Assembly: GCA_046563655.1 (NCBI GenBank)
Contig: CM102286.1
Location: 9,548,001-9,612,000 of the forward strand
DNA: 64,000 nucleotides
Reading direction: 5' to 3'
Source: Yuukianura sp. NJ FZ-2021
Lineage: Eukaryota
Shown here in pieces: positions 1 through 45,624 of the stretch. Position 1 is the first letter of the stretch. The number at the start of each line of letters is the position of its first letter. Both the position numbers and the translations under genes were made by a program. Below the pieces are notes generated by a model. The model searched no databases. It worked only from the letters and a program-made list of their open reading frames with translations, and was not told the DNA's origin.

Positions 1-3000
1 GACATTCTATGCTGGATTCCATTTTCTAAGGTAAAGACGTGTCTCCATACGCTCAAGTAAAATACTTGAAGCTCACGTCACACTTACTAAAGGGATGTTA
101 AAGCAGTGTGACAGGAAAAAAAGATGAGGTCACCAAGAAACCCAGCATTGAAAGTGGCTGTATATTCGAATTGACATTGAAGTTGATGTTCTTCGTACAC
201 GGGTTTGTGGGCGTCGAAAGACATTCTATGCTGGATTCCATTTTCTAAGGTTAAGACGTGTCTCCATACGCTCAAGTAAAATGCTTGGAGTTCACGTCAC
301 ACTTACTAAAGGGATGTTAAAGCAGTGTGACAAGTAAGAAAGGTGATTTCACCAAGAAACCCAGAATTGAAAGTGGCTGTATATTCCAATTGACATTGAA
401 GTTGATGTTCTTCGTACACGGGTTTGTGGGCGTCGAAAGACATTCTATGCTGGATTCCATTTTCTAAGGTTAAGACGTGTCTCCATACGCTCAAGTAAAA
501 TGCTTGAAGTTCACGTCACACTTACTAAAGGGATGTTAAAGCAGTGTGACAAGTAAAAAAAGATGATTTCACCAAGAACGCCGGCACTGAAAGTGGTTAT
601 ATATTCGAATTGACCTTGAAGTTGATATTCTTCGTACACGGATTCGTGGGCGTCGAAAGACATTCTATGCTGGATTCCATTTTCTAAGGTTAAGACGTGT
701 CTCCATACGCTCAAGTAAAATAGTAAAATGCTTGAAGTTCACGTCACACTTACTAAAGGGATGTTAAAGCAGTGTGACAAGTAAAAAAAGTTGATTTCAC
801 CAAGAACGCCGCCACTGAAAGTGGCTGTATATTCGAATTGACCTTGAAGTTGATATTCTTCGTACACGGGTTTGTGGGCGTCGAAAGACATTCTATGCTG
901 GATTCCATTTTCTAAGGTTAAGACGTGTCTCCATACGCTCAAGTAAAATAGTAAAATGCTTGAAGTTCACGTCACACTTACTAAAGGGATGTTAAAGCAG
1001 TGTGACAAGTAAAAAAGATGAGGTCACCAAGAACGCCGGCACTGAAAGTGGTTATATATTCGAATTGACCTTGAAGTTGATATTCTTCGTACACGGATTT
1101 GTGGGCGTCGAAAGACATTCTATGCTGGATTCCATTTTCTAAGGTTAAGACGTGTCTCCATACGCTCAAGTAAAATGCTTGAAGTTCACGTCACACTTAC
1201 TAAAGGGATGTTAAAGCAGTGTGACAAGTAAAAAAAGATGATTTCACCAAGAACGCCGGCACTGAAAGTGGTTATATATTCGAATTGACCTTGAAGTTGA
1301 TATTCTTCGTACACGGATTTGTGGGCGTCGAAAGACATTCTATGCTGGATTCCATTTTCTAAGGTTAAGACGTGTCTCCATACGCTCAAGTAAAATGCTT
1401 GGAGTTCACGTCACACTTACTAAAGGGATGTTAAAGCAGTGTGACAAGTAAAAAAAGATGATTTCACCAAGAACGCCGGCACTGAAAGTGGTTATATATT
1501 CGAATTGACCTTGAAGTTGATATTCTTCGTACACGGATTCGTGGGCGTCGAAAGACATTCTATGCTGGATTCCATTTTCTAAGGTTAAGACGTGTCTCCA
1601 TACGCTCAAGTAAAATAGTAAAATGCTTGAAGTTCACGTCACACTTACTAAAGGGATGTTAAAGCAGTGTGACAAGTAAAAAAAGATGATTTCACCAAGA
1701 ACGCCGGCACTGAAAGTGGTTATATATTCGAATTGACCTTGAAGTTGATATTCTTCGTACACGGATTCGTGGGCGTCGAAAGACATTCTATGCTGGATTC
1801 CATTTTCTAAGGTTAAGACGTGTCTCCATACGCTCAAGTAAAATAGTAAAATGCTTGAAGTTCACGTCACACTTACTAAAGGGATGTTAAAGCAGTGTGA
1901 CAAGTAAAAAAAGATGATTTCACGAAGAACGCCGGCACTGAAAGTGGTTATATATTCGAATTGACCTTGAAGTTGATATTCTTCGTACACGGATTCGTGG
2001 GCGTCGAAAGACATTCTATGCTGGATTCCATTTTCTAAGGTTAAGACGTGTCTCCATACGCTCAAGTAAAATAGTAAAATGCTTGAAGTTCACGTCACAC
2101 TTACTAAAGGGATGTTAAAGCAGTGTGACAAGTAAAAAAAGTTGATTTCACCAAGAACGCCGCCACTGAAAGTGGCTGTATATTCGAATTGACCTTGAAG
2201 TTGATATTCTTCGTACACGGATTTGTGGGCGTCGAAAGACATTCTATGCTGGATTCCATTTTCTAAGGTTAAGACGTGTCTCCATACGCTCAAGTAAAAT
2301 GCTTGGAGTTCACGTCACACTTACTAAAGGGATGTTAAAGCAGTGTGACAAGTAAGAAAGGTGATTTCACCAAGAACGCCGCCACTGAAAGTGGCTGTAT
2401 ATTCGAATTGACCTTGAAGTTGATATTCTTCGTACACGGATTTGTGGGCGTCGAAAGACATTCTATGCTGGATTCCATTTTCTAAGGTTAAGACGTGTCT
2501 CCATACGCTCAAGTAAAATAGTAAAATGCTTGAAGTTCACGTCACACTTACTAAAGGGATGTTAAAGCAGTGTGACAAGTAAAAAAAGATGATTTCACCA
2601 AGAACGCCGGCACTGAAAGTGGTTATATATTCGAATTGACCTTGAAGTTGATATTCTTCGTACACGGATTCGTGGGCGTCGAAAGACATTCTATGCTGGA
2701 TTCCATTTTCTAAGGTTAAGACGTGTCTCCATACGCTCAAGTAAAATGCTTGAAGTTCACGTCACACTTACTAAAGGGATGTTAAAGCAGTGTGACAAGT
2801 AAAAAAGTTGATTTCACCAAGAAACCCAGCATTGAAAGTGGCTGTATATTCCAATTGACATTGAAGTTGATGTTCTTCGTACACGGGTTTGTGGGCGTCG
2901 AAAGACATTCTATGCTGGATTCCATTTTCTAAGGTTAAGACGTGTCTCCATACGCTCAAGTAAAATGCTTGAAGTTCACGTCACACTTACTAAAGGGATG

Positions 3001-6000
3001 TTAAAGCAGTGTGACAAGTAAAAAAAGATGATTTCGCCAAGAAACCCAGCATTGAAAGTGGCTGTATATTCGCATTGACTTTGATGTTGATATTCTTCGT
3101 ACACGGATTTGTGGGCGTCGAAAGACATTCTATGCTGGATTCCATTTTCTAAGGTTAAGACGTGTCTCCATACGATCAAGTAAAATGCTTGGAGTTCACG
3201 TCACACTTACTAAAGGGATGTTAAAGCAGTGTGACAAGTAAGAAAGGTGATTTCACCAAGAACGCCGGCACTGAAAGTGGTTATATATTCGAATTGACCT
3301 TGAAGTTGATATTCTTCGTACACGGATTCGTGGGCGTCGAAAGACATTCTATGCTGGATTCCATTTTCTAAGGTTAAGACGTGTCTCCATACGCTCAAGT
3401 AAAATACTCGAAGCTCACGTCACACTTACTAAAGGGATGTTGAAGCAGTGTGACAAGTAAAAAAAGTTGATTTCACCAAGAACGCCGCCACTGAAAGTGG
3501 ATGTATATTCGAATTGACCTTGAAGTTGATATTCTTCGTACACGGATTTGTGGGCGTCGAAAGACATTCTATGCTGGATTCCATTTTCTAAGGTTAAGAC
3601 GTGTCTCCATACGCTCAAGTAAAATGCTTGGAGTTCACGTCACACTTACTAAAGGGATGTTAAAGCAGTGTGACAAGTAAGAAAGGTGATTTCACCAAGA
3701 ACGCCGGCACTGAAAGTGGTTATATATTCGAATTGACCTTGAAGTTGATATTCTTCGTACACGGATTCGTGGGCGTCGAAAGACATTCTATGCTGGATTC
3801 CATTTTCTAAGGTTAAGACGTGTCTCCATACGCTCAAGTAAAATAGTAAAATGCTTGAAGTTCACGTCACACTTACTAAAGGGATGTTAAAGCAGTGTGA
3901 CAAGTAAAAAAAGATGATTTCACCAAGAACGCCGGCACTGAAAGTGGCTGTATATTCCAATTGACATTGAAGTTGATGTTCTTCGTACACGGGTTAGTGG
4001 GCGTCGAAAGACATTCTATGCTGGATTCCATTTTCTAAGGTTAAGACGTGTCTCCATACGCTCAAGTAAAATGCTTGAAGTTCACGTCACACTTACTAAA
4101 GGGATGTTAAAGCAGTGTGACAAGAAAAAAAGATGATTTCACCAAGAAACCCAGAATTGAAAGTGGCTGTATATTCCAATTGACATTGAAGTTGATGTTC
4201 TTCGTACACGGGTTTGTGGGCGTCGAAAGACATTCTATGCTGGATTCCATTTTCTAAGGTTAAGACGTGTCTCCATACGCTCAAGTAAAATGCTTGAAGT
4301 TCACGTCACACTTACTAAAGGGATGTTAAAGCAGTGTGACAAGTAAAAAAAGATGATTTCGCCAAGAAACCCAGCATTGAAAGTGGCTGTATATTCGCAT
4401 TGACTTTGATGTTGATATTCTTCGTACACGGATTTGTGGGCGTCGAAAGACATTCTATGCTGGATTCCATTTTCTAAGGTTAAGACGTGTCTCCATACGA
4501 TCAAGTAAAATGCTTGGAGTTCACGTCACACTTACTAAAGGGATGTTAAAGCAGTGTGACAAGTAAGAAAGGTGATTTCACCAAGAACGCCGGCACTGAA
4601 AGTGGTTATATATTCGAATTGACCTTGAAGTTGATATTCTTCGTACACGGATTCGTGGGCGTCGAAAGACATTCTATGCTGGATTCCATTTTCTAAGGTT
4701 AAGACGTGTCTCCATACGCTCAAGTAAAATAGTAAAATGCTTGAAGTTCACGTCACACTTACTAAAGGGATGTTAAAGCAGTGTGACAAGTAAAAAAAGA
4801 TGATTTCACCTAGAACACCGCCACTGAAAGTGGCTGTATATTCCAATTGACATTGAAGTTGATGTTCTTCGTACACGGGTTTGTGGGCGTCGAAAGACAT
4901 TCTATGCTGGATTCCATTTTCTAAGGTTAAGACGTGTCTCCATACGCTCAAGTAAAATACTCGAAGCTCACGTCACACTTACTAAAGGGATGTTAAAGCA
5001 GTGTGACAAGTAAGAAAGGTGATTTCACCAAGAACGCCGCCACTGAAAGTGGCTGTATATTCGAATTGACCTTGAAGTTGATATTCTTCGTACACGGATT
5101 TGTGGGCGTCGAAAGACATTCTATGCTGGATTCCATTTTCTAAGGTTAAGACGTGTCTCCATACGCTCAAGTAAAATGCTTGGAGTTCACGTCACACTTA
5201 CTAAAGGGATGTTAAAGCAGTGTGACAAGTAAAAAAAGATGATTTCACCAAGAACGCCGGTACTGAAAGTGGTTATATATTCGAATTGACCTTGAAGTTG
5301 ATATTCTTCGTACACGGCTTCGTGGGCGTCGAAAGACATTCTATGCTGGATTCCATTTTCTAAGGTTAAGACGTGTCTCCATACGCTCAAGTAAAATGCT
5401 TGAAGTTCACGTCACACTTACTAAAGGGATGTTAAAGCAGTGTGACAAGAAAAAAGATGAGGTCACCAAGAAACCCAGCATTGAAAGTGGCTGTATATTC
5501 GAATTGACTTTGATGTTGATATTCTTCGTACACGGATTTGTGGGCGTCGAAAGACATTCTATGCTGGATTCCATTTTCTAAGGTTAAGACGTGTCTCCAT
5601 ACGATCAAGTAAAATGCTTGGAGTTCACGTCACACTTACTAAAGGGATGTTAAAGCAGTGTGACAAGTAAAAAAAGATGATTTCACCAAGAACGCCGGCA
5701 CCGAAAGTGGTTATGTATTCCAACTGACCTTGAAGTTGATATTCTTCGTACACGGATTCGTGGGCGTCGAAAGACATTCTATGCAGGATTCCATTTTCTA
5801 TGGTTAAGACGTGTCTCCATACGCTCAAGTAAAATGCTTGGAGTTCACGTCACACTTACTAAAGGGATGTTAAAGCAGTGTGACAAGAAAAAAGATGAGG
5901 TCACCAAGAAACCCAGCATTGAAAGTGGCTGTATATTCGCATTGACTTTGATGTTGATATTCTTCGTACACGGATTTGTGGGCGTCGAAAGACATTCTAT

Positions 6001-26689: not shown

Positions 26690-27706
26690 GTCAACTCCTT
26701 CCGGGTCAAAGGTCAAGGTCAACCGGTTTCATCCCCGGTAACCCGGAAAATGACCTCTACAAAAGTTGTTCATCTCATTGAGACCAACAACTTTTGTGTG
26801 TAATGTGTGACCCCAGGTCACCTGCGTCCGGGTCAAAATGGATTTCAAAGGTCATTTGTAATGCAAGTGTGGGTAGAAAAACTCTGCTTGTGAGACAGGA
26901 AAGGCAATTGGCATGGGGCTTGGTTCTCTGCTTAGCAAAAAATCCATTACGCAGTTGACTAACACACTCAACTGTCACCTGTCACACTTCATCTGTCACT
27001 TCACCTGTCACGTGCCGGGTGTCACCTGTCACGCGCCGGATGTCACCTGTCACGGCTGTCACTTGCAGGGTGTCAGTTGTCACCTGTCACTCACGTGCCG
27101 GGTGTCACGTCTCACTTGCCGGGTGAGAGTTGTCAACTGTCACTCACGTGTCGGGTGTCACCTGTCACGTGCTGGGTGTCAGCTGTCACCTGTCACTTTC
27201 CGGGTGTCACCTGTCACATGCCGGGTGTCACCTGTCACTTTCCGGGTGTCACCTGTCACGTGCCGCGTGTCACCTGTCACACTCACGTGTCACTTGCCGC
27301 GTGTCACCTGTCACCCTCACATGTCACTTGCCGCGTGTCACCTGTCACACTCACGTGTCACTTGCCGGGTGTCACCTGTCACGTCTCACCTGTCAGCTGT
27401 CACGCCTCAGCTGTCACGCCTCAGCTGTCACGTCTCATATGTCAAGACCCCCTGGGGGGCGGGAAAGTGGGGGGAGCACACCCACACTCACCCTGGGGGG
27501 GGGCGGGAAAGTGGGGGGAACACACCCCCACGCCTCCTGGGGTGCGGAGCAAAAAAGCGGGAAAACACACCCCCACTCCCCCGACGGGGCGGGAAAGTTG
27601 GGGGAACACACCCCCGCTCACCTTTGGAGGGGGGGGGGCTTCAGTGTGATTTACAAAACTTCCCTATTCTTCGCTATTATCATTATGGGCGGTTTACAAC
27701 CGGTTT
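26690..27706 (+). mobile_element. Helentron-associated interspersed element (HINE/DINE-1-like), 5'-truncated copy with internal minisatellite
   Basis: 26691-26830 closely matches 27926-28075. The interior is GC-rich with poly-G/C tracts, and the 3' end reads TTCGCTATTA...CGGTTTACAACCGGTTT (short hairpin), matching 32788-32806. Confidence 0.6.
26970..27440. repeat. Degenerate minisatellite built from TGTCACCTGTCAC / GCCGGG units
   Basis: Dozens of TGTCAC-containing units. It produces only low-complexity ORFs in all three frames. Confidence 0.85.
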
Positions 27707-28636
27707 ATTAATAGCGAAAGCTATATAATAGCTTTCGCTATTAATAATACGATTCTATAATACGATATAATACGATATATAATAATACGATGTCTGTCTG
27801 TCTGTCTGTCTGGAAAATATGAGCACGATTATCTCGGTAACTACTGCACCAATTTTAACCGGGTTTCCACCAGTCACCATGATATGACCCGGAGATGACC
27901 ACTATTGAATATTATTCCCCTGGGGCAACTCCTTCCAGGTCAAAGGGCAAGGTCACACGGTTTCATCCCCGGTAACCCGGAAAACGACCTCTACAAAAGT
28001 TGTTCAGCTCGTCGAGAGTAACAACTTTTGTTTATATCACATGACCCAAAGTGACCTGCTTCCGGGTCAAAGGTCAACTTTTTTTTTATATTAACGTCCT
28101 CCTAGCTGGGAAGCGGGGAGGAACGCACCCCACAGCGCCGGGTGACCCACCATCACACCCCCGCGTGACCCACCCTCACACCCACGAGAGAGCCACACAC
28201 ACACCCCCGGGGAAACCTTCCCCACACCCCTCCCCGGGGAACCCACTCCTTCTCCCCTGGGTAACCCAGCCCCTCTTCCCCCGGGGAACCCACCACCCTT
28301 CTCCCGGGGAACACCCACCCCCGCTTCTCCGAGGGTAGGGGGGGGGGCGAGAAAATCGGGGGAACAACCCCCACGCATCCTGATTTGATTTGATTTGATT
28401 TATTGGCCGAATGGTATCCTGCAAGCAGGTAGTTACACCATGGCGTATTAGATTAATAATTATGTCAATATCATTATAGTTAAAATTAGGTGACGGTTGA
28501 TTTACTAATTAAAAGTTAATGGTTAAAAAGAGTTAGGTTGAGTAGTAGAGTAAATGAATAAGGGAACGCAATGAAAATGAAAAAATTATTGCTAACTTAT
28601 AGTCAAAACTTAAAGTAATTAAAATAGTTAAAATAG

Positions 28637-31558
28637 TTAAGAGGAAGAGTCGGAGGAACTCTGGTCAGTATCTTCATCAGGATTTGAATCCAAACTTGAT
28701 CGGAGTTGCTGATTTAAAAAGAAAGTAGTCAGAATTTTTCTAGTTCTTGGTCCCGGGTTTTTGACCGCTTCTCTGTGTTCTTCAGGTATGGAGTTCAGAA
28801 TTCTAGACACTGAGGAAACGAAAGATTTAGGGTGATTTGCGCGGTTGTGTACAATGTACACTCCTGATCTTGTCGAGGTTGTGTTTTCTGAATACTTAGC
28901 GATTTCAGTGGAGATGACTTTGAAGTAAGGAATGTTGTGCTGAATCATCGATGAATAGATGAGTAAGTGATCCAGTGCACTTAATTGGGTAGATAGAAGC
29001 CACTTTAGTTGGTGGATTAATGCGTCTACACATTCCCGTTTCTTCAGTTTAAAAATGAAGCGGACACATTTTCGAAATATTTTGCTTATATTATTAAATT
29101 GGTGACGCACTGATTTTGACCACAAGACAATTAGGTAACGTAGTATTGGGAAGATGTATGAAACGATCATTAGTCTTCTGTTGTGATGTGACAGGAGATG
29201 CTGAATTGGATAGAGCGACCACAGAATTCGGTTACATTTTTTTGTTATGTTGATTATGTGGTTTGACCAAGAAAGTGTATTGTCTAGTTCCAGTCCAAGG
29301 GTTTTGAATGAGTCAACGCTCAGAATTCTTGTGTCACCTATGTTGAGTTGAATTTTGCCAATTCGTTTCACTTGACTTGGTTTACCAATAACAAGTACTT
29401 TGGTTTTGTCCAGATTCAGACCCATATGATTTTCTGCAGTCCATCGATTTACTGAAGCAATTGTTTCCTCTGCGTTGACTATTAATTGTTCCAAATGTTC
29501 CAATCGACCTCCCAGTACGATATTGTTGTCGTCCGCAAAAAGCACTGGAGATCCATGTCTAATAGCGTATAGGAGATCATTGATCATAATAGAGAACAGG
29601 AAGGGACCTAATACAGAACCTTGTGGTACTGATAAATTTGTTTCTCTGGAGATTGAACTTTCACCGTTAGTTTTAACACTTTGAGATCTGCCATTCAAAT
29701 ATGACTCAAACCATGGAGATGCTACGTTGTACCAACGTAGTTTTTCACAAAGTATGCCCTTGTCAACTGTGTCGAAAGCTTTTCTTAAATCCAGAGAAAG
29801 CACTAAGCACACTTCGCCCCGATTTAGATGAGCATAAATAAGATCGGTCAGAGCGATTTGTGCCATCGTGGTAGAGTGATGGTTCCGAAACCCAAACTGT
29901 GCACTGTTTAATAAACTGTTTCGGTTGAAAAAGGATTTTAGTTGGTCGAGGGCAAATCTTTCGCACAATTTGGCAATCACTGGCTGAAGAGAGATTGGAC
30001 GTGTTTCACTTGGATGTAGTGGTTTTGGTGCTTTTGGTAACGGTATCACTGTTGAATGCTTAAGACATGTAGGAAAATGTCCAGTTTGCAATGACTCATT
30101 GATTATGTGTATTATTTGATGTTGAATATTCTGAGATCCAATGCTGTGATTCAAAATCCAATTCGATATTCCAAACTGATCCTTGCATTTATCAGTTTTG
30201 TTTTTGAGTTTCTTCCAAGTTTTGCCAAACAATGTAGAATTAATTTTGGAAAAACTGAACTCTTCACTGGGTGTATTAATGTGAATTGGTTTTGAAGGCA
30301 GAACAGTAGATATGTGCTGAGGTGTCGTGATTGAAGTGTAATATTTGTTAATTTCTTCAGCGGAAAAGGGAAATTTTTGATTTACATCTTTTGAGTTGGG
30401 ACGAATCTTGGAAATAGCTTTGAATGGTCCAATTTTCTTAATTTCAGTATTAAGTGAGTCTCTTCTGTCCTTAATGATGGCAGACTTGAGTGATTTCGTG
30501 ATTTGTTTGAGTTGAATGCGTTGAGTGATGGACAACGGTCCATTTCTTTGTAACTTCCTTTTTTCTGTAATCAGCATTTTTGTAGTATCAGAAAGTGAGA
30601 GTGGTAGTGATTTTGGCGTAAAGGACACTGTACGTAATTTGATTGTACTTTGGAAGTTTTCACTGATTTTTGACATGAAATCAAGGAAGAGAATGCCTAC
30701 ATCTTTTCCAAAATTGTCAAATGTTGTGTAGATTGACTTCAGTCCGTATTCTTCGAAGTCAAATGTTTTGTAGTCATGAAATTGGAATTTTGTTTTCTTG
30801 ACTTTGGGTTTCGACAGATTCACAGTTATAGTTGTAACACAATGATCAGAAATACCTGGGTCAAATACTTTGAGGTCAAGTGCCAGATCTGGGTTGTTAC
30901 AGAAAATTAAGTCTAGGATTGAGTCACCGCGTGTAGGCACTTTCACCAATTGTTTAAAAACTGAGTTGATCTGTTTCACCGCATGATTGCATTTTTGCGG
31001 GACGTAAGTAGAGTTAAGATTAAAATCACCTAGGACGAATGACGCTTTTTTCGTAGTATTCAGTTCATTAAACAATGACATAATAGTCTCAAGATCACAT
31101 TGAACAACACTTGGATTGTAGGAGGGGATTCTGTAGACGCTGCTGATGAGGACGGATTTATTATGGTTCAGTTGAATTTTTGCAGTAATTATTTCAACGT
31201 TTCTATTTTCAAGTAGATTGATGATTTTTTCACTAAAAGTAAGTGATGAACGAATTAGAATTCCGACTCCCCCTTTTCCTTGCCAATCTCGAACTTTATG
31301 AATAAAGTGATATCCGTCGATGGGTCTTGGAGGGTTATTTTCCTTTAAATGAGTTTCAGTTATACATAGAACGTCAAAGTTGTACAAGTCGAGTAGGATT
31401 TTTATTGCGTCTGCTTTAGAATTGTAGCCACAGACATTCAGTGCTGCTATACTTAGTCGATTCTTTAAAATACGAGGTGATTGGTTGATTTGATTTTTCA
31501 GAAGCTGAGGTTTGAGTCGGTGAGCACGGTCTGGAGAGGAACGGCGAGGTTCGGATAG
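28637..31558 (-). CDS. LINE ORF2: apurinic-like endonuclease plus reverse transcriptase (973 open codons, no ATG before the endonuclease)
   Basis: APE motifs LNVCG, DVLCITETHL, GGVGILI, YRIP, GDFN, PTR..SILDLIF and SDH. RT motifs RPISL, QFGFR, DLRKAFDTV, VPQGSVLGP, FADD and KTLGL. The frame is open from 31558, 57 codons upstream of the TTG used by the ORF track. Confidence 0.95.
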   Translation of the reverse strand, partial: LSEPRRSSPDRAHRLKPQLLKNQINQSPRILKNRLSIAALNVCGYNSKADAIKILLDLYNFDVLCITETHLKENNPPRPIDGYHFIHKVRDWQGKGGVGILIRSSLTFSEKIINLLENRNVEIITAKIQLNHNKSVLISSVYRIPSYNPSVVQCDLETIMSLFNELNTTKKASFVLGDFNLNSTYVPQKCNHAVKQINSVFKQLVKVPTRGDSILDLIFCNNPDLALDLKVFDPGISDHCVTTITVNLSKPKVKKTKFQFHDYKTFDFEEYGLKSIYTTFDNFGKDVGILFLDFMSKISENFQSTIKLRTVSFTPKSLPLSLSDTTKMLITEKRKLQRNGPLSITQRIQLKQITKSLKSAIIKDRRDSLNTEIKKIGPFKAISKIRPNSKDVNQKFPFSAEEINKYYTSITTPQHISTVLPSKPIHINTPSEEFSFSKINSTLFGKTWKKLKNKTDKCKDQFGISNWILNHSIGSQNIQHQIIHIINESLQTGHFPTCLKHSTVIPLPKAPKPLHPSETRPISLQPVIAKLCERFALDQLKSFFNRNSLLNSAQFGFRNHHSTTMAQIALTDLIYAHLNRGEVCLVLSLDLRKAFDTVDKGILCEKLRWYNVASPWFESYLNGRSQSVKTNGESSISRETNLSVPQGSVLGPFLFSIMINDLLYAIRHGSPVLFADDNNIVLGGRLEHLEQLIVNAEETIASVNRWTAENHMGLNLDKTKVLVIGKPSQVKRIGKIQLNIGDTRILSVDSFKTLGLELDNTLSWSNHIINITKKCNRILWSLYPIQHLLSHHNRRLMIVSYIFPILRYLIVLWSKSVRHQFNNISKIFRKCVRFIFKLKKRECVDALIHQLKWLLSTQLSALDHLLIYSSMIQHNIPYFKVISTEIAKYSENTTSTRSGVYIVHNRANHPKSFVSSVSRILNSIPEEHREAVKNPGPRTRKILTTFFLNQQLRSSLDSNPDEDTDQSSSDSSS

Positions 31559-32308
31559 TCAAATTGGAGAACGTAACGTAATGCTGCTACGTCCGAATCC
31601 GGAAGTTTGAGCAACAGAAGAGAATGATGGGGCTTGAGATGTAGCAGTAGTTGTTTGATTGTTACCAGCATTTTGAGTTCGGTATTTCATTGCAAGTTTT
31701 TTTCGAGCACTGAAAAGCAGATCTTGTGTGATTTTGATGCCTGGATGTGTAGTTTTGATTTTGTCACGATTCTTCCAGATCATGTTTCTAGCTTCAAGCG
31801 ATGTAAAGATAATTTTGACAGGTTTGTTTGGATTTTGAGGTGTTGATTTGCCAAGTCTAAATGCTTCAGAGACAAAACTCGAATTGGTAGTTTGGAGACA
31901 ATTGGAGAACATCGTTTCGAGTCCGGAGAGAAGTGATTCTGTAGTTTCGTTTGCATATCGTTGAAGTCCATGTAACACGAGGTTGGTTTTGTTAATGGCG
32001 ATTTGCAGCTTTTCAATTTCTGAGTCATGGGTTTGAACGTTTTGAATTATGTACTTCTGCTCATTTTCAGTTGCTTGAACTCTTCCTTTGATCGAGGTAA
32101 CTTCAGCTGTCAGTGACTGTAATTGCTGTGAAAGTTCAACATGATTGGTTTTGACTTGGTCACTGAGATCTTTGATTTGATCTTTGATTGCAGTCAGGAT
32201 TGAGGCAATGTCAGTGTCACTCATCTTCAGTGCTTTTTGAGTGTTGGTTTCAGAGTTAATAGCTTTGCGTTTTGTTCCTCTGGTATTGGGTTTCTCCAAA
32301 GAAGTCAT
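31559..32308 (-). CDS. LINE ORF1 protein (coiled coil plus RRM-like domain), 249 aa
   Basis: Heptad-rich N-terminal half, then NLVLHGL...AFRLGK...KPVKIIF...ITQDL, typical of CR1/L2/L1-type ORF1. It lies directly upstream of ORF2. Confidence 0.88.
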   Translation of the reverse strand: MTSLEKPNTRGTKRKAINSETNTQKALKMSDTDIASILTAIKDQIKDLSDQVKTNHVELSQQLQSLTAEVTSIKGRVQATENEQKYIIQNVQTHDSEIEKLQIAINKTNLVLHGLQRYANETTESLLSGLETMFSNCLQTTNSSFVSEAFRLGKSTPQNPNKPVKIIFTSLEARNMIWKNRDKIKTTHPGIKITQDLLFSARKKLAMKYRTQNAGNNQTTTATSQAPSFSSVAQTSGFGRSSITLRSPI

Positions 32309-33319
32309 CGGTTCATCATCAGGAGGTAAACTAGATAAATACCAGAACTGGTGCCAGTATCTTTTGGTTTCAATTTGGGTGATTATGACCTTCGGGTCAC
32401 TACATATACTAATGTAAGACGGAACTTACTTATAGTCGTTTGCACGTTGCCATGAGTTAAATCGTAGTCAGCTGTTTGTTGATGATGATGATTGATGAGA
32501 AACTGTAATTTGTGTCACCGAGAGGTGCCACAAATTACCTCCCACCTGGGGTGCGGAGGAAAAAAGTGGGGGAACTTACCCCCGGGCACACTCCCTGGGG
32601 TGCGGAGCGAAAAAGTGGGGAACACACCCCCACTTCCCCGGGGGAGGGGGGCGAAAAAGTGGGGGGACCCACCCCCACTCCCTCGGGGGAGGAGAAAAGG
32701 TGGGGGAAAGCCACCCCACTCCTTCATGGATTAGACGTTCAGTTAGCTTTAAAAAACAGCCTTATCGCTTGAGCTATTTCTTATGTGCGGGGTACAACCG
32801 GTTTATTCGACTAGGTTAGCTAGTTATAAGAATAAATAAAGTATTATAGGTTTAAAATATAGTAATAATTATGATATGAATACATTTTATTCTAAATCGG
32901 TGCTACTTTGGTTAGATAATAGGTTACGTAACTTAGAAAATTATGTCAAATTTCAAAATGAGTTAAAGAAACTGTTTTTAGAGAAACAACTGAAAATTTA
33001 GCGAAACATAGAGGAAGATTCAAAACATAATTTGATTATTAACTTAACTAGCGTAAGACCACTTCGATAGGTTCCAGTTAAGATTTAGTCAAAATATGTG
33101 AGTATAGAGTATAGACGATAAATAAATTCAAATTCTTTCTCCCGAATTAGTTGACCACTAACTTGCATTGTTAACAATTGAACAATGCTGAAATGATATA
33201 CTCAGTAGAATTAGCAAAAAAAAACAGCGTTTCCAGTGTGCTCATATTAAAGCACACTTAACTATTGAAATCTACACAGTCTCAAGCTTCGAAGTTAAAT
33301 GGTTTAAAAATGTAAGATT

Positions 33320-40721: not shown

Positions 40722-41268
40722 TGTGAGGACTGGGGGAGGGATAAAAGGGGAAACAAAGGACAAGCCAGAAAAAATAAAGGAACCGAGTGGGACTCGAACC
40801 CACACCTCTTCAATCCGGGAAGATGCTCTCTAACAATTGAGCTACCGGTTCGATCTGGCTTGTCAAGGGAAGGGAACTGGTGTGTGTGATGGGAGTGAGA
40901 CACGAGCCACTTCGTACACTCTCCATCCTGGCGATTGGCAGTGGGGACTTGCTGTCCAATCGCCACACCACCCCGCCCCCGAAGTCCTCCGACGGTTCGG
41001 AACAACCGTCTTTCGGCACCATATGTGAGGACTGGGGGAGGGATAAAAGGGGAAACAAAGGACAAGCCAGAAAAAATAAAGGAACCGAGTGGGACTCGAA
41101 CCCACACCTCTTCAATCCGGGAAGATGCTCTCTACCAATTGAGCTACCGCTTCGATCTGGCTTGTCAAGGGAAGGGAACTGGTGTATGTGATGGGAGTGA
41201 GACACGAGCCACTTCGTACACTCTCCATCCTTGCGATTGGCAGTGGGGACTTGCTGTCCAATCGCCAC
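40722..41268 (-). repeat. Tandem 302-bp unit (1.8 copies) containing a tRNA-derived sequence (SINE-like / pseudo-tRNA)
   Basis: Minus strand 40851-40780 and 41153-41082 read GAAcCGGTAGCTCAATTGxTAGAG (A box)...GGTTCGAGTCCC (B box) ACTCGGTTC, then a T-run. The anticodon arm is non-canonical. Confidence 0.8.
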
Positions 41269-41567
41269 ATGATCATGACCTTAAATGGTTCACAAACATT
41301 TGTTTCAATACGTACTTTGTTTTCAACCAATTTAGTTTTACTACATTGTGTTTCCCCATAGTTTATGCATACGAATGTCACTGCGCCTACACACAAAACC
41401 GACATTCGAACGACAGAGCGGCTGAGAGGATTTTAAATTACAGGTTAGATAGAATATTCTAGACTGTTCCGTATGTATCAGTGTGACGTACTAATGGAGT
41501 AGAAAACCATATCCCAATCGTTAATTTAACAAAGCACCGAGCGACAACAAAGGTTGTGTGCAATTAG

Positions 41568-42249: not shown

Positions 42250-42606
42250 GCAATTAGTAAGAATTTCGTTTACTTCAACCCTTGTATTGTAGATATGTTA
42301 GGTACGGTGTTGTTCTGTTTTGTGTTGGTAAACGGCAGGGAGGAATGGGCATGCGTCAGACAAAGTGCGAGAGAGGGGGAGGCACACGGAAGCAATGAGA
42401 AAGCATTGAGTTCTCACTGCACCGAAGCAGGCCATAATCTAAGCAAGAAAAATCTAAGCACGCCATAATCTAAGCAAGCCAAAATCTAAGCATGATTTTA
42501 CAGTGGATTTGGATTAGGTTTTAATGGTTAGGTTAGTCAGGTTAGGCTCTAATTCACGTTAAGTTAGGTTTGGTCACGATAATTTCCTTGCTAAATACGT
42601 AATTTA

Positions 42607-43181
42607 ATACTGAGCTTCTACGATAACGAAAATCCAGAATACAACTGGGCTCTACAGTTTCGAAATGGACTTGATGAATTTAAAATTCAGTTTAAGTGGC
42701 CTCATCCAGCAACATTCCGTGACGAAATTCCGGATTTAGTTTGGGATCATCTCTACACAGTCGACAGTCATAAAATCATAACCTCCGCTGACCACTTCCC
42801 TTTCCACAGAAACATGGCTGTCTCTACGTCCACACCGGCACCATATTTGTTGCTCCCAATTCCAATAGGCTGGAAAAGACTCCTGTCCTTTCGCAAATCC
42901 GCTTGAACAACACATTTTTGCGAATTGGCAAAAACTCCTGCAGAGTCTTGAAGGAAGTGACATGCAGAATATGCAATCAAGCAGAACCAGATAATGCAAC
43001 TCATATTATCACCAGATGCCCAATAGTTAGTCTTCAAGCATTTCGAACTTTGACACAGAATCAAGAATTCAATTCACTTCTTCAGAACCCTTCAATTGAA
43101 TTTTTGAAACAGCTTATCCCAGCATCAGCATATAGCATCCGAGGAAAATCTTTCTTCCTGTCAGTCTCAGAGAACACTTAG
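42607..43181 (+). pseudogene. C-terminal end of a non-LTR RT ORF (CCHC zinc knuckle), one frameshift
   Basis: ...YNWALQFR...APYLLLPIPIGWKRLLS, a frameshift at ~42890, then QIRLNNTFLRIG...CRICNQAEPDNATHIITRCP (C-x2-C-x9-H-x4-C)...ENT*. Confidence 0.72.
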
Positions 43182-43249
43182 ACAGCCACAGACAGGAAAC
43201 GACATCGTTCAAAAGCTAAATCCAATAAACTGAAATTCCAACGTGAGCA

Positions 43250-43777
43250 ACGGACCTAAAAATTTTGTTCATTTTACTAATCTGCCTCCGTCAAGTCCAC
43301 CCCGGATCCGTCGCAACGCTCGCCAAGGCCTCTGCACCAGCAATTGGACAAGCCATCGCCAATTTTCTAATCAAAGTCCGCGGAATTTACGGAAATGGAA
43401 ACGACTTTGCAACCAGAAACGGATTCAACTACCCGGATATATACAACAATCACCTCATGATGTCTACTATAAACGCGGCATACAACAACAAACAACTGGA
43501 AGAAGAGGAAGAACAAACAAAAATACTTCGAGAAGACATGGCGGAAGAAAAGATTCACTTTTTTGTCATTTCCGGATTTATGCTCACCCTCATCATATGC
43601 GCCCTCTTTGCAACTCTAATCACGTTCCGGAAGTGCTCCAGCGCCAACACCAACCGAGCCACAGAGGAAGCCATAGAAGAGTACGAACGCGGCCTCACAC
43701 TCAGAGCAATTAGGAACAGGCTTTCCGACGACAGAGGAACCCAGGCCAATCGTGACCGCGTTGAAAACATTGTATAA
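43250..43777 (+). CDS. Putative small type-I membrane protein (175 aa; signal peptide plus one TM helix) inside the LINE, downstream of RT; start codon is ACG (mutated or non-AUG)
   Basis: Open frame (M)DLKILFILLICLRQVHPG-SVATLAK...EEK-IHFFVISGFMLTLIICALFATLITF-RKC...ENIV*. ACG at 43250 is in the context GCA-ACG-G, right after an in-frame TGA. Confidence 0.6.
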   Translation, partial: TDLKILFILLICLRQVHPGSVATLAKASAPAIGQAIANFLIKVRGIYGNGNDFATRNGFNYPDIYNNHLMMSTINAAYNNKQLEEEEEQTKILREDMAEEKIHFFVISGFMLTLIICALFATLITFRKCSSANTNRATEEAIEEYERGLTLRAIRNRLSDDRGTQANRDRVENIV

Positions 43778-44199
43778 GTACCTCCGACACTTCATTCCAA
43801 AAAAAAAAAATAATCACTTTCTCTTTAAAGTTTCAAACACTTTCCCTGACACTTAAAGAATAATACACTTTCGCCCATCACACCTCGCCCCCCACCCCCT
43901 TTCAAATCTACTCATAAAAAAATTGAACTCCAGTAATTTACTTTACTTCTACTTTTATGACATTGGGAATCCATGGGCTGCGTCCCTAGGGAATCCCGTT
44001 AAAGAAAAATAAATAAATAAAAAAAAATACGTAATTTAGCGTTCTTAGATTTTTGGTTGCTTAGATTTTGGTTTCCTTAGACTTTTGTTGCTTAGATTAT
44101 GGCACGGACTCTCACTGCACACAGACACACAGAGTGTGGGACATCCGGACTGTATTGGAGATCTCTTCTTATGTAGTAGATGTGTAAAATCCTAATAAT

Positions 44200-45348: not shown

Positions 45349-45524
45349 TGCGTCTTTAAGTTGGCATTTCGAAAATAGCTTTTCCTACATACGGAAAACA
45401 AGCTTGAGTATTGTCTTATGCAGAAACACCATACGTGTCTGTTTAACTTCTCATTTCAAAATAAGCGTTTCGGTTTGGTTGCTTTATATCTGCACTGTCC
45501 TAAAGCTTCGAAAGCCGGTTGGAT

Positions 45525-45624
45525 NNNNNNNNNNNNNNNNNNNNNNNNNNNNNNNNNNNNNNNNNNNNNNNNNNNNNNNNNNNNNNNNNNNNNNNNNNNN
45601 NNNNNNNNNNNNNNNNNNNNNNNN
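45525..45624. other. Assembly gap (100 N)
   Basis: A run of 100 N, the usual placeholder for a gap of unknown size. Confidence 0.99.

Follow-up and report, generated by a model that had tools for sequence, protein, structure and literature searches.

A LINE insertion with an open reading frame downstream of the reverse transcriptase

We analyzed a 64,000-nucleotide stretch of contig CM102286.1 from Yuukianura sp. NJ FZ-2021 (assembly GCA_046563655.1, positions 9,548,001 to 9,612,000 of the forward strand). This whole stretch is referred to as the window, and all positions are numbered within it. At 42607–44024 the window contains what is probably the remnant of a retrotransposon without long terminal repeats (a non-LTR retrotransposon), or long interspersed nuclear element (LINE), in which the end of a reverse transcriptase (RT) open reading frame (ORF) is followed by a further frame, ORF3, that would encode a small membrane protein. 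A preliminary description of this DNA had proposed a single insertion with a 14-bp target-site duplication and an A-rich tail, and these boundaries held up. A script check found that the 14-mer AAATACGTAATTTA occurs exactly twice in the window, at 42593–42606 and 44025–44038, and the two exact copies bracket one insertion consisting of the RT tail, a 68-nucleotide (nt) spacer, a 175-codon frame and an A-rich tail. The exact 14-base duplication, the A-rich tail and an RT ORF that is cut on its 5′ side are hallmarks of target-primed reverse transcription. No direct repeats that could represent LTRs flank the element within the window, and no second copy of the element was found in these 64 kb.

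All parts of the element are on the + strand. From the RT ORF it keeps only the tail that follows the RT core, which is readable in two frames, 42595–42906 and 42792–43181, with a frameshift somewhere in 42792–42906. The portion of the first frame inside the insertion (42607–42906) covers the stretch that separates the RT core from the Cys-His knuckle, and the second frame contains the knuckle, C-X2-C-X9-H-X4-C, at 42963–43019 and ends with TAG at 43179–43181. A Pfam scan of the second frame gave only a sub-threshold match to zf-RVT. The 68-nt spacer (43182–43249) contains AATAAA at 43224–43229 and a TGA at 43244–43246 that closes the ORF3 frame upstream. ORF3 itself occupies 43250–43777 (175 codons plus stop), so the juxtaposition of an RT C-terminus and a long open frame that had been described initially can be read directly from the DNA. 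A 3′ untranslated region (UTR; 43778–43964), a hairpin (43965–43997) and a tail of the (A)nT type (43998–44024) complete the insertion. The 5′ truncation, the RT frameshift and the ACG codon at the position of the ORF3 start, all noted in the preliminary description, were confirmed; because of these three defects the copy in the window is dead and cannot work.

The LINE copy is nested in a high-copy inverted-repeat element that resembles a foldback element or a miniature inverted-repeat transposable element (MITE). The inverted-repeat arms, at 42425–42492 and 44044–44098, are 16-bp tandem repeats with a depth in Logan contigs in the thousands, versus about 130 for the insertion. Other copies of the inverted repeat join across the region of the insertion site, for example from 42411 to 44110.

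ORF3 defines an unnamed family of predicted membrane proteins

The ORF3 frame opens right after the TGA at 43244–43246, and its first in-frame ATG does not come before residue 70. The frame has the features originally ascribed to it: a hydrophobic start, an Ala/Gly-rich segment, an acidic stretch, a hydrophobic segment (I102–F126), RKC and a charged tail. We divide it into a signal-peptide-like part (43250–43306), a conserved ectodomain (43307–43558), a predicted transmembrane (TM) segment (F104–F126, 43559–43627) and a putative cytosolic tail (43628–43774). The + strand of the ORF is T-poor (20.5% T), and 6 of 5000 mononucleotide shuffles of 43182–44024 contained an open frame of at least 176 codons. 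A second frame in another phase, 43234–43713 on the + strand, is open for 159 codons and would encode an Arg/Ser/Pro-rich product. We rejected this frame as a gene; it is not consistently open in the related loci described below and is probably a by-product of the T-poor strand.

An exhaustive phmmer search with ORF3 against 1.84 billion cluster representatives identified 25 proteins at E ≤ 1e-3, six of them at E ≤ 1e-10 and none at 1e-30. The best match had an E value of 2.4e-23 and 37% identity over residues 7–161 of the 175 residues. The matches are 93–180 amino acids (aa) long, and all are co-linear with the window ORF3 and align with it end to end. They share its layout: the N-terminus is hydrophobic, and a conserved block, a heptad stretch of acidic character, a single hydrophobic segment and a basic tail follow in turn. 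Within the conserved block, F39, G48, Y61, Y65, L69, N75 and Q89 are invariant or nearly so. One check proposed with the preliminary description was whether the consensus of the family has ATG. Of the 25 homologues, 24 start with Met, the exception being a fragment, and the ACG of the window copy aligns with this starting Met.

Charges, glycosylation sequons and Cys residues were counted in 29 proteins of at least 100 aa. The 15 residues that follow the TM segment have a positive net charge in 29/29, and the net charge before the segment is zero or negative in 28/29, which is the type I (N-out) pattern. Ectodomain sequons are present in 2/29 proteins and Cys in 3/29, and none of 25 ectodomains contains an RxxR site. 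By sequence rules, the ORF3 product would thus be a type I, single-pass membrane protein that enters the endoplasmic reticulum (ER). The predicted family product is 140–180 aa long. It starts with what looks like a cleavable signal peptide, followed by an ectodomain of about 85 aa that lacks Cys, one TM helix and a basic cytosolic tail. In order, the ectodomain consists of a hydrophobic, Ala/Gly-containing start, a helix, a Gly/aromatic loop (FG.G..F....G.Y..VYN) and a long heptad helix with a polar core formed by N75, Q82 and Q89.

The family is unnamed and comprises at least 25 clusters at 50% identity. None of the 20 representatives that were looked up among the 25 carries a functional name or is an annotated host gene. 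Their sources are JGI/IMG, ENA and Logan contigs plus one NCBI entry (P0020), with contigs of 0.7–5.8 kb, and one identical homologue protein occurs on 14 contigs. Genome annotation appears to miss this family, most likely because of its location in repeats. Other searches added little. No Pfam domain scored above cut-off in the window ORF3 or in the 13 homologues scanned; a word-index protein search gave no match with ORF3 alone and only two already-known members with the ORF3 profile (alignment A1); the ESM Atlas gave no usable match to ORF3; and the viral-contig and genome-contig collections that were scanned contained no relative of it. Fused or longer RT-ORF3 proteins were absent from 8000 scored candidates, which is weak evidence against such forms.

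RT and ORF3 are adjacent in divergent relatives

We searched for the loci of ORF3 relatives with a four-member alignment (A3). The search patterns matched 168 stretches, of which four were confirmed (L001–L004), all from one metagenome. In L002, an RT frame of 487 codons that is open to the 5′ end of the contig lies upstream of ORF3 on the same strand, about 325 nt before it. This frame matches RVT_1 (1.1e-17), solved R2 RTs (4.1e-11) and L1 ORF2p (3.5e-6). L003 has the same layout, with an RT tail of 223 codons. The RT tails of the two loci align over 233 aa, with no stop, at 39% identity, and the two ORF3 proteins are 47% identical. That both frames stay open at such a distance, unlike in dead DNA, indicates that RT and ORF3 have been kept side by side through a long divergence. 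The RT-ORF3 spacers of L002 and L003 are about 310–325 nt long, AT-rich and not conserved, as compared with 68 nt in the window. No conserved motif was found between the two spacers, and neither a tail nor a hairpin lies between the RT stop and ORF3 in either locus.

The RT tail in the window is weakly similar to those of L002 and L003. Its second frame matched the L002 and L003 tails by BLASTP with E values of 8e-7 and 4e-5, respectively, and its first frame gave a weak co-linear BLASTP match to residues 307–384 of the L002 tail (E 0.002), all in a two-sequence database. By hhalign, the window RT tail aligned in register with the L002/L003 tails with a probability of 66.7% (E 5.3e-5, 52 columns). 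The knuckle C-X2-C-X9-H-X4-C lies about 55–60 residues before the stop in all three RT tails.

LINE context was therefore present in 5/5 loci read, with RT upstream of ORF3 in three of them (window, L002 and L003) and a shared 3′ end in three (window, L001 and L004). The window locus has both inside one target duplication. This context in every locus makes a one-off 3′ transduction unlikely, and ordinary 5′ truncation of a LINE would leave ORF3-only copies such as those in L001 and L004.

Some further observations were made in these loci. The ORF3 of L004 (4150–4310) stops early and the conserved cytosolic-tail motif continues in another frame, reflecting a frameshift or an assembly error; a broken frame of this kind is typical of decaying copies. 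Downstream of ORF3 in L001, at 1500–5300, hydrophobic segments are abundant in several exon-like frames, which have a repeated ‘...KWL.KL.W’ end. The frames resemble a host gene for a multi-pass membrane protein, or two such genes in tandem, and had no Pfam match at E ≤ 0.01. By eye, pyrimidine tracts ending in AG precede the ATG by 10–40 nt in L001–L004, which may be due to chance in AT-rich DNA.

A predicted 3′ hairpin is shared among the loci that reach the 3′ end

A hairpin of the same predicted shape was found in 3/3 loci that reach the 3′ end (window, L001 and L004). It consists of an outer stem, an A bulge, an inner stem (UGGG/CCYR) and a loop of 6–7 nt. The window hairpin contains the 8-mer CCATGGGC, which occurs once each in the window, L001 and L004, at the matching relative place. 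At paired positions, the copies differ from one another on both sides of the stem (A-U, C-G, U-G). An A-rich tail follows the hairpin directly in the window and in L001, and the L004 contig ends at the hairpin. A scan of L001–L004 with Rfam gave no match. The hairpin starts 187 nt after the ORF3 stop in the window, about 255 nt after it in L004 and 116 nt after it in L001. Since it is farther from the stop in the window and L004, the L002 and L003 contigs, which end 109 and 141 nt after the ORF3 stop, probably do so before reaching the hairpin.

The last 79 nt before the tail of the window element (43918–43996), which include the hairpin, are also present on other Logan contigs, with unlike flanks on both sides and at higher depth, in three runs. 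LINEs and short interspersed nuclear elements (SINEs) of LINE-SINE pairs share 3′ modules. The 43918–43996 segment fits a 3′ module that is shared with other elements, which may be a partner SINE or another LINE subfamily.

Selection on ORF3 and copy number of the element

We compared ORF3 at the DNA level in the five loci. Identity by codon position was in the order 2 > 1 > 3 in 10/10 pairs of the five sequences. In addition, variant Logan contigs from runs that contain the locus, which may represent alleles or paralogues, differ from the window at seven ORF3 positions; five of the differences are synonymous, and S>T and I>L are the other two. The binomial probability of at least five synonymous changes in seven is 0.008, given that 22.7% of the possible single changes are synonymous. 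Together, the codon-position pattern and the variant contigs indicate purifying selection on ORF3.

In runs X1–X3, one or two near-identical contigs cover the body of the element, their depth being close to that of the unique flanks; contigs of runs X3 and X4 leave parts of the stretch uncovered. The sequencing runs listed for the locus include no RNA run. A contig from run X1 differs from the window by five substitutions over 42831–43551 and by a 5-base indel; the indel, at 42881, falls within the overlap of the two RT frames. This contig represents an allele or a very recent second copy.

Predicted structure of the ORF3 protein

AlphaFold2 modeling with alignment A1 gave a mean pLDDT of 79.6 and a pTM of 0.35. 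The model contains helices at residues 18–47 and 50–56, and one unbroken helix at 61–174 that passes through the TM segment, such that the predicted TM helix is continuous with the heptad stalk. When three copies of residues 19–130 were modeled together, the ipSAE value was 0.33 (median of three runs), compared with 0.00 for the best of three controls. Contact agreement in the trimer runs was at least 59% and partner pLDDT at least 53. We applied a mark of 0.32 for the ipSAE. In a calibration with microbial proteins, which used two copies rather than three, 21 of 30 solved homo-pairs and none of 23 single chains reached this mark. Contacts in the trimer model involve residues 72–129, spaced 3–4 residues apart and in register, as in a parallel coiled coil that continues into the membrane, and the conserved polar residues N75, Q82 and Q89 are on the seam. 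On the basis of this model the ORF3 product is probably a parallel coiled-coil oligomer. Foldseek searches of BFVD and PDB returned nothing at E ≤ 0.001, a single long helix being a poor query.

Other features of the window

A LINE of a different family lies at 28637–32425 on the − strand and is apparently full-length, with an ORF1-like frame of 288 codons and, directly after it, an ORF2 of 973 codons (Exo_endo_phos and RVT_1). This element contains neither a terminal Cys-His knuckle nor a downstream ORF3 homologue. At 40722–41269 on the − strand, a 302-bp unit is repeated 1.8 times with 98% identity, each copy containing a tRNA-Ser(GGA) gene (40779–40851 and 41081–41153). Low-complexity repeats (CHLS/RVSPVT-like) at 26877–27728 are open in three + frames, and a 100-N assembly gap is present at about 45520–45620.

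Discussion

We consider it probable that 42607–44024 is a dead, 5′-truncated copy of a LINE whose lineage carries ORF3 after the RT ORF and ahead of the 3′ hairpin and the A-rich tail. The preliminary description had left two explanations side by side, a LINE family with its own ORF3 membrane protein and a captured or transduced host gene. Our results support the former: RT lies upstream of ORF3 in two of the four fetched loci, the hairpin is shared by the other two, Met is present at the start of 24/25 homologues, and ORF3 changes as a coding sequence does. The latter lost ground, as the arrangement recurs in L002 and L003, the 3′ end is common to L001 and L004, and no named cellular homologue was found among the 20 representatives looked up. 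None of the outcomes that the preliminary description named as refuting, namely relatives without the segment, random stops or a matching single-copy host gene, was encountered.

According to our model, the element would have been inserted by target-primed reverse transcription into the high-copy inverted-repeat element. In an intact copy, RNA of the element itself would be the template for ORF3, either through reinitiation or via a spliced or sub-genomic RNA. The protein would enter the ER as a type I membrane protein and would serve a membrane-bound step of the element cycle. Our tentative preference, based on sequence, is for a role on the exoplasmic side, in which ORF3 would be a small oligomeric membrane-remodeling, fusogen-like or vesicle-release factor that helps the ribonucleoprotein (RNP) to move from one cell to another, for instance from the soma into the germ line. 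An exoplasmic role is favored because the ectodomain, including the Gly/aromatic loop, is the best conserved part, and the tail is less so. An intracellular role is somewhat less likely; here ORF3 might tether the RNP to the ER or the nuclear envelope, or antagonize a host factor. A further idea, which we think unlikely, is that ORF3 is the minimal analogue of an envelope protein in a non-LTR retrotransposon. It would then be a type I protein that trimerizes as a coiled coil and engages another membrane through its Gly/aromatic tip or its hydrophobic N-terminus. If this were true, a vesicle-borne LINE RNP could fuse into neighboring cells, from soma to germ line or between individuals, and infectivity in retroelements would have an origin separate from the capture of env by LTR elements.

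Several findings weigh against the interpretation of an ORF3-bearing LINE lineage with a membrane-bound step. None of the five loci contains a full-length element; all are without the 5′ part, in which an endonuclease and, in most LINE clades, an ORF1 would be expected. The linkage of RT and ORF3 extends over one metagenome plus the window, and the homology of the window RT tail to those of L002 and L003 is weak (66.7% hhalign probability over 52 columns, and a tblastn E value of 0.003). L001 and L004 have no RT frame upstream of ORF3, and neither their 5′ ends nor their target duplications could be delimited, so ORF3 and the tail could also move as a separate unit. The covariation in the hairpin comes from three sequences, with folding z-scores of only −0.95 to −2.26. 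At ≥80% identity, the runs that contain the locus show a single copy of the element or close to it, and no active family in this genome. Both near-identical versions have ACG, and the source element may already have had the start defect. The trimer passed marginally (0.33 versus a mark of 0.32), outside the design of the calibration, and was modeled without the alignment. Finally, ORF3 shows no similarity to env, FAST or other fusogens, as judged from Pfam, from Foldseek against BFVD and PDB, from the lack of RxxR (0/25) and from the near absence of sequons and Cys.

Because L001 and L004 combine ORF3 and the shared hairpin without an upstream RT frame, we considered that the unit of mobility may be a cassette of ORF3, 3′ UTR, hairpin and tail, either a non-autonomous protein-coding retroposon or a segment captured repeatedly, that is mobilized in trans through a LINE 3′ module, with the RT-ORF3 junctions arising as chimeras or nested insertions. 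The presence of 43918–43996 between unlike flanks on other contigs, which suggests a tail module common to different elements, and the unconserved spacers of 68 nt and about 310–325 nt would fit such a cassette. However, L002 and L003 have neither a tail nor a hairpin between the RT stop and ORF3; these two loci also agree in order, strand and spacer size despite the low identity of their RT tails (39%) and ORF3 proteins (47%). Moreover, in the window the RT tail and ORF3 lie together inside one pair of target duplications, and 5′ truncation of a LINE already predicts copies such as L001 and L004. We therefore regard a mobile cassette as quite unlikely.

An event confined to this genome is very improbable. 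Chimeric retrocopies and L1 3′ transductions are one-off events that place non-LINE-looking sequence between ORF2 and the tail inside one duplication pair, and a 3′ transduction, or a template switch to a host mRNA that yielded a chimeric retrocopy of a cellular membrane-protein gene, would fit the ACG in place of ATG, the AATAAA within the 68-nt spacer, the low copy number in the runs that contain the locus and the lack of a second copy in the window. In contrast to such events, the arrangement recurs in elements whose proteins share only 20–47% identity: RT is followed by ORF3 in two other very divergent elements (L002 and L003), and the hairpin is also 3′ of ORF3 in L001 and L004. None of the 20 homologue clusters looked up (0/20) is a named cellular gene, and no longer or fused forms were found among the 8000 candidates scored. 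The chance that ORF3 is merely an open frame in a T-poor, non-coding 3′ UTR is negligible. The composition of the + strand and the 159-codon frame at 43234–43713 made this worth considering, but it is refuted by the 25 homologues, with E values down to 2.4e-23. The coding-type pattern of codon-position identity, the 6/5000 shuffles that reach this length and the inconsistency of the alternative frame in the relatives also argue against it.

LINEs are usually regarded as strictly intracellular elements with one or two ORFs and no membrane-bound stage. We found no report of a LINE with a downstream membrane-protein ORF in the literature searched, the coverage of which left out Repbase Reports and most subscription journals. 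The 3′ end described here resembles that of stringent-type LINEs, which to our knowledge contain ORF1 and ORF2 only in elements of the UnaL2 and ZfL2 type, with no membrane-protein gene between ORF2 and the hairpin. Points in common are the place of the hairpin, which is predicted in our case, immediately ahead of a repeat or A-rich tail, the occurrence of the tail module on further elements of the genome, 5′ truncation and target duplications. In eel UnaL2 and zebrafish ZfL2, the 3′ hairpin is recognized by the element's own RT (PMC1636434, PMC4176376), and by analogy the hairpin found here would be recognized by the RT of its LINE.

Retroviral and errantiviral Env proteins are made as a precursor of surface (SU) and TM subunits with a furin-type cleavage site, and have a disulfide-bonded, glycosylated ectodomain with two heptad regions. 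Env of errantiviruses and Ty3/gypsy elements is encoded by an ORF3 downstream of pol/RT, as is ORF3 here, and its product has a comparable layout of signal peptide, ectodomain with a helical stalk, C-terminal TM anchor and short tail (PMC5408684, PMC5718144, PMC13524379). In contrast, the host element in our case is a non-LTR element, and the protein is 140–180 aa long rather than several hundred. One of these sources warns against reading a downstream ORF3 as env on its position alone (PMC5718144). The ORF3 described here also differs from Env in that it is without RxxR (0/25) and essentially without Cys or sequons, has an ectodomain of about 85 aa, and gave no sequence or fold match. The reovirus FAST proteins (p10, p14, p15 and related) are small, single-pass proteins of about 100–200 aa in which a basic stretch follows the TM segment, and the agent that encodes them has no envelope of its own. 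They have no cleaved signal peptide, and their ectodomains are very small and often acylated. Like them, ORF3 is small and single-pass and has a basic stretch after the TM segment; unlike them, it has a signal-peptide-like start and a conserved helical ectodomain of 85 aa, and it gave no fold match in BFVD. Among LINEs, the esterase-type ORF1 of CR1, L2 and RTEX elements (PMC5408684) is a further parallel, as an accessory protein that is thought to link retrotransposition to membranes or lipids. That protein is encoded upstream of RT, however, and is a soluble SGNH-type enzyme with a coiled coil rather than a TM protein, with no similarity to ORF3. The same source shows this membrane-linked esterase in LINEs only as ORF1, and ORF3 capture and small TM ORFs only in LTR and Penelope-like elements (PMC5408684).

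How some LINEs get from somatic cells into the germ line, or from one species to another, is an open question. Vesicle-borne transfer of human L1 has been reported without an element-encoded membrane protein (PMC6691892). A LINE lineage that has kept a secretory-pathway, single-pass and probably oligomeric membrane protein beside its RT through deep divergence would point to a membrane step in the life cycle. ORF3, as a small protein that should be easily expressed, offers a way of asking whether a non-LTR element acts at membranes or moves across them.

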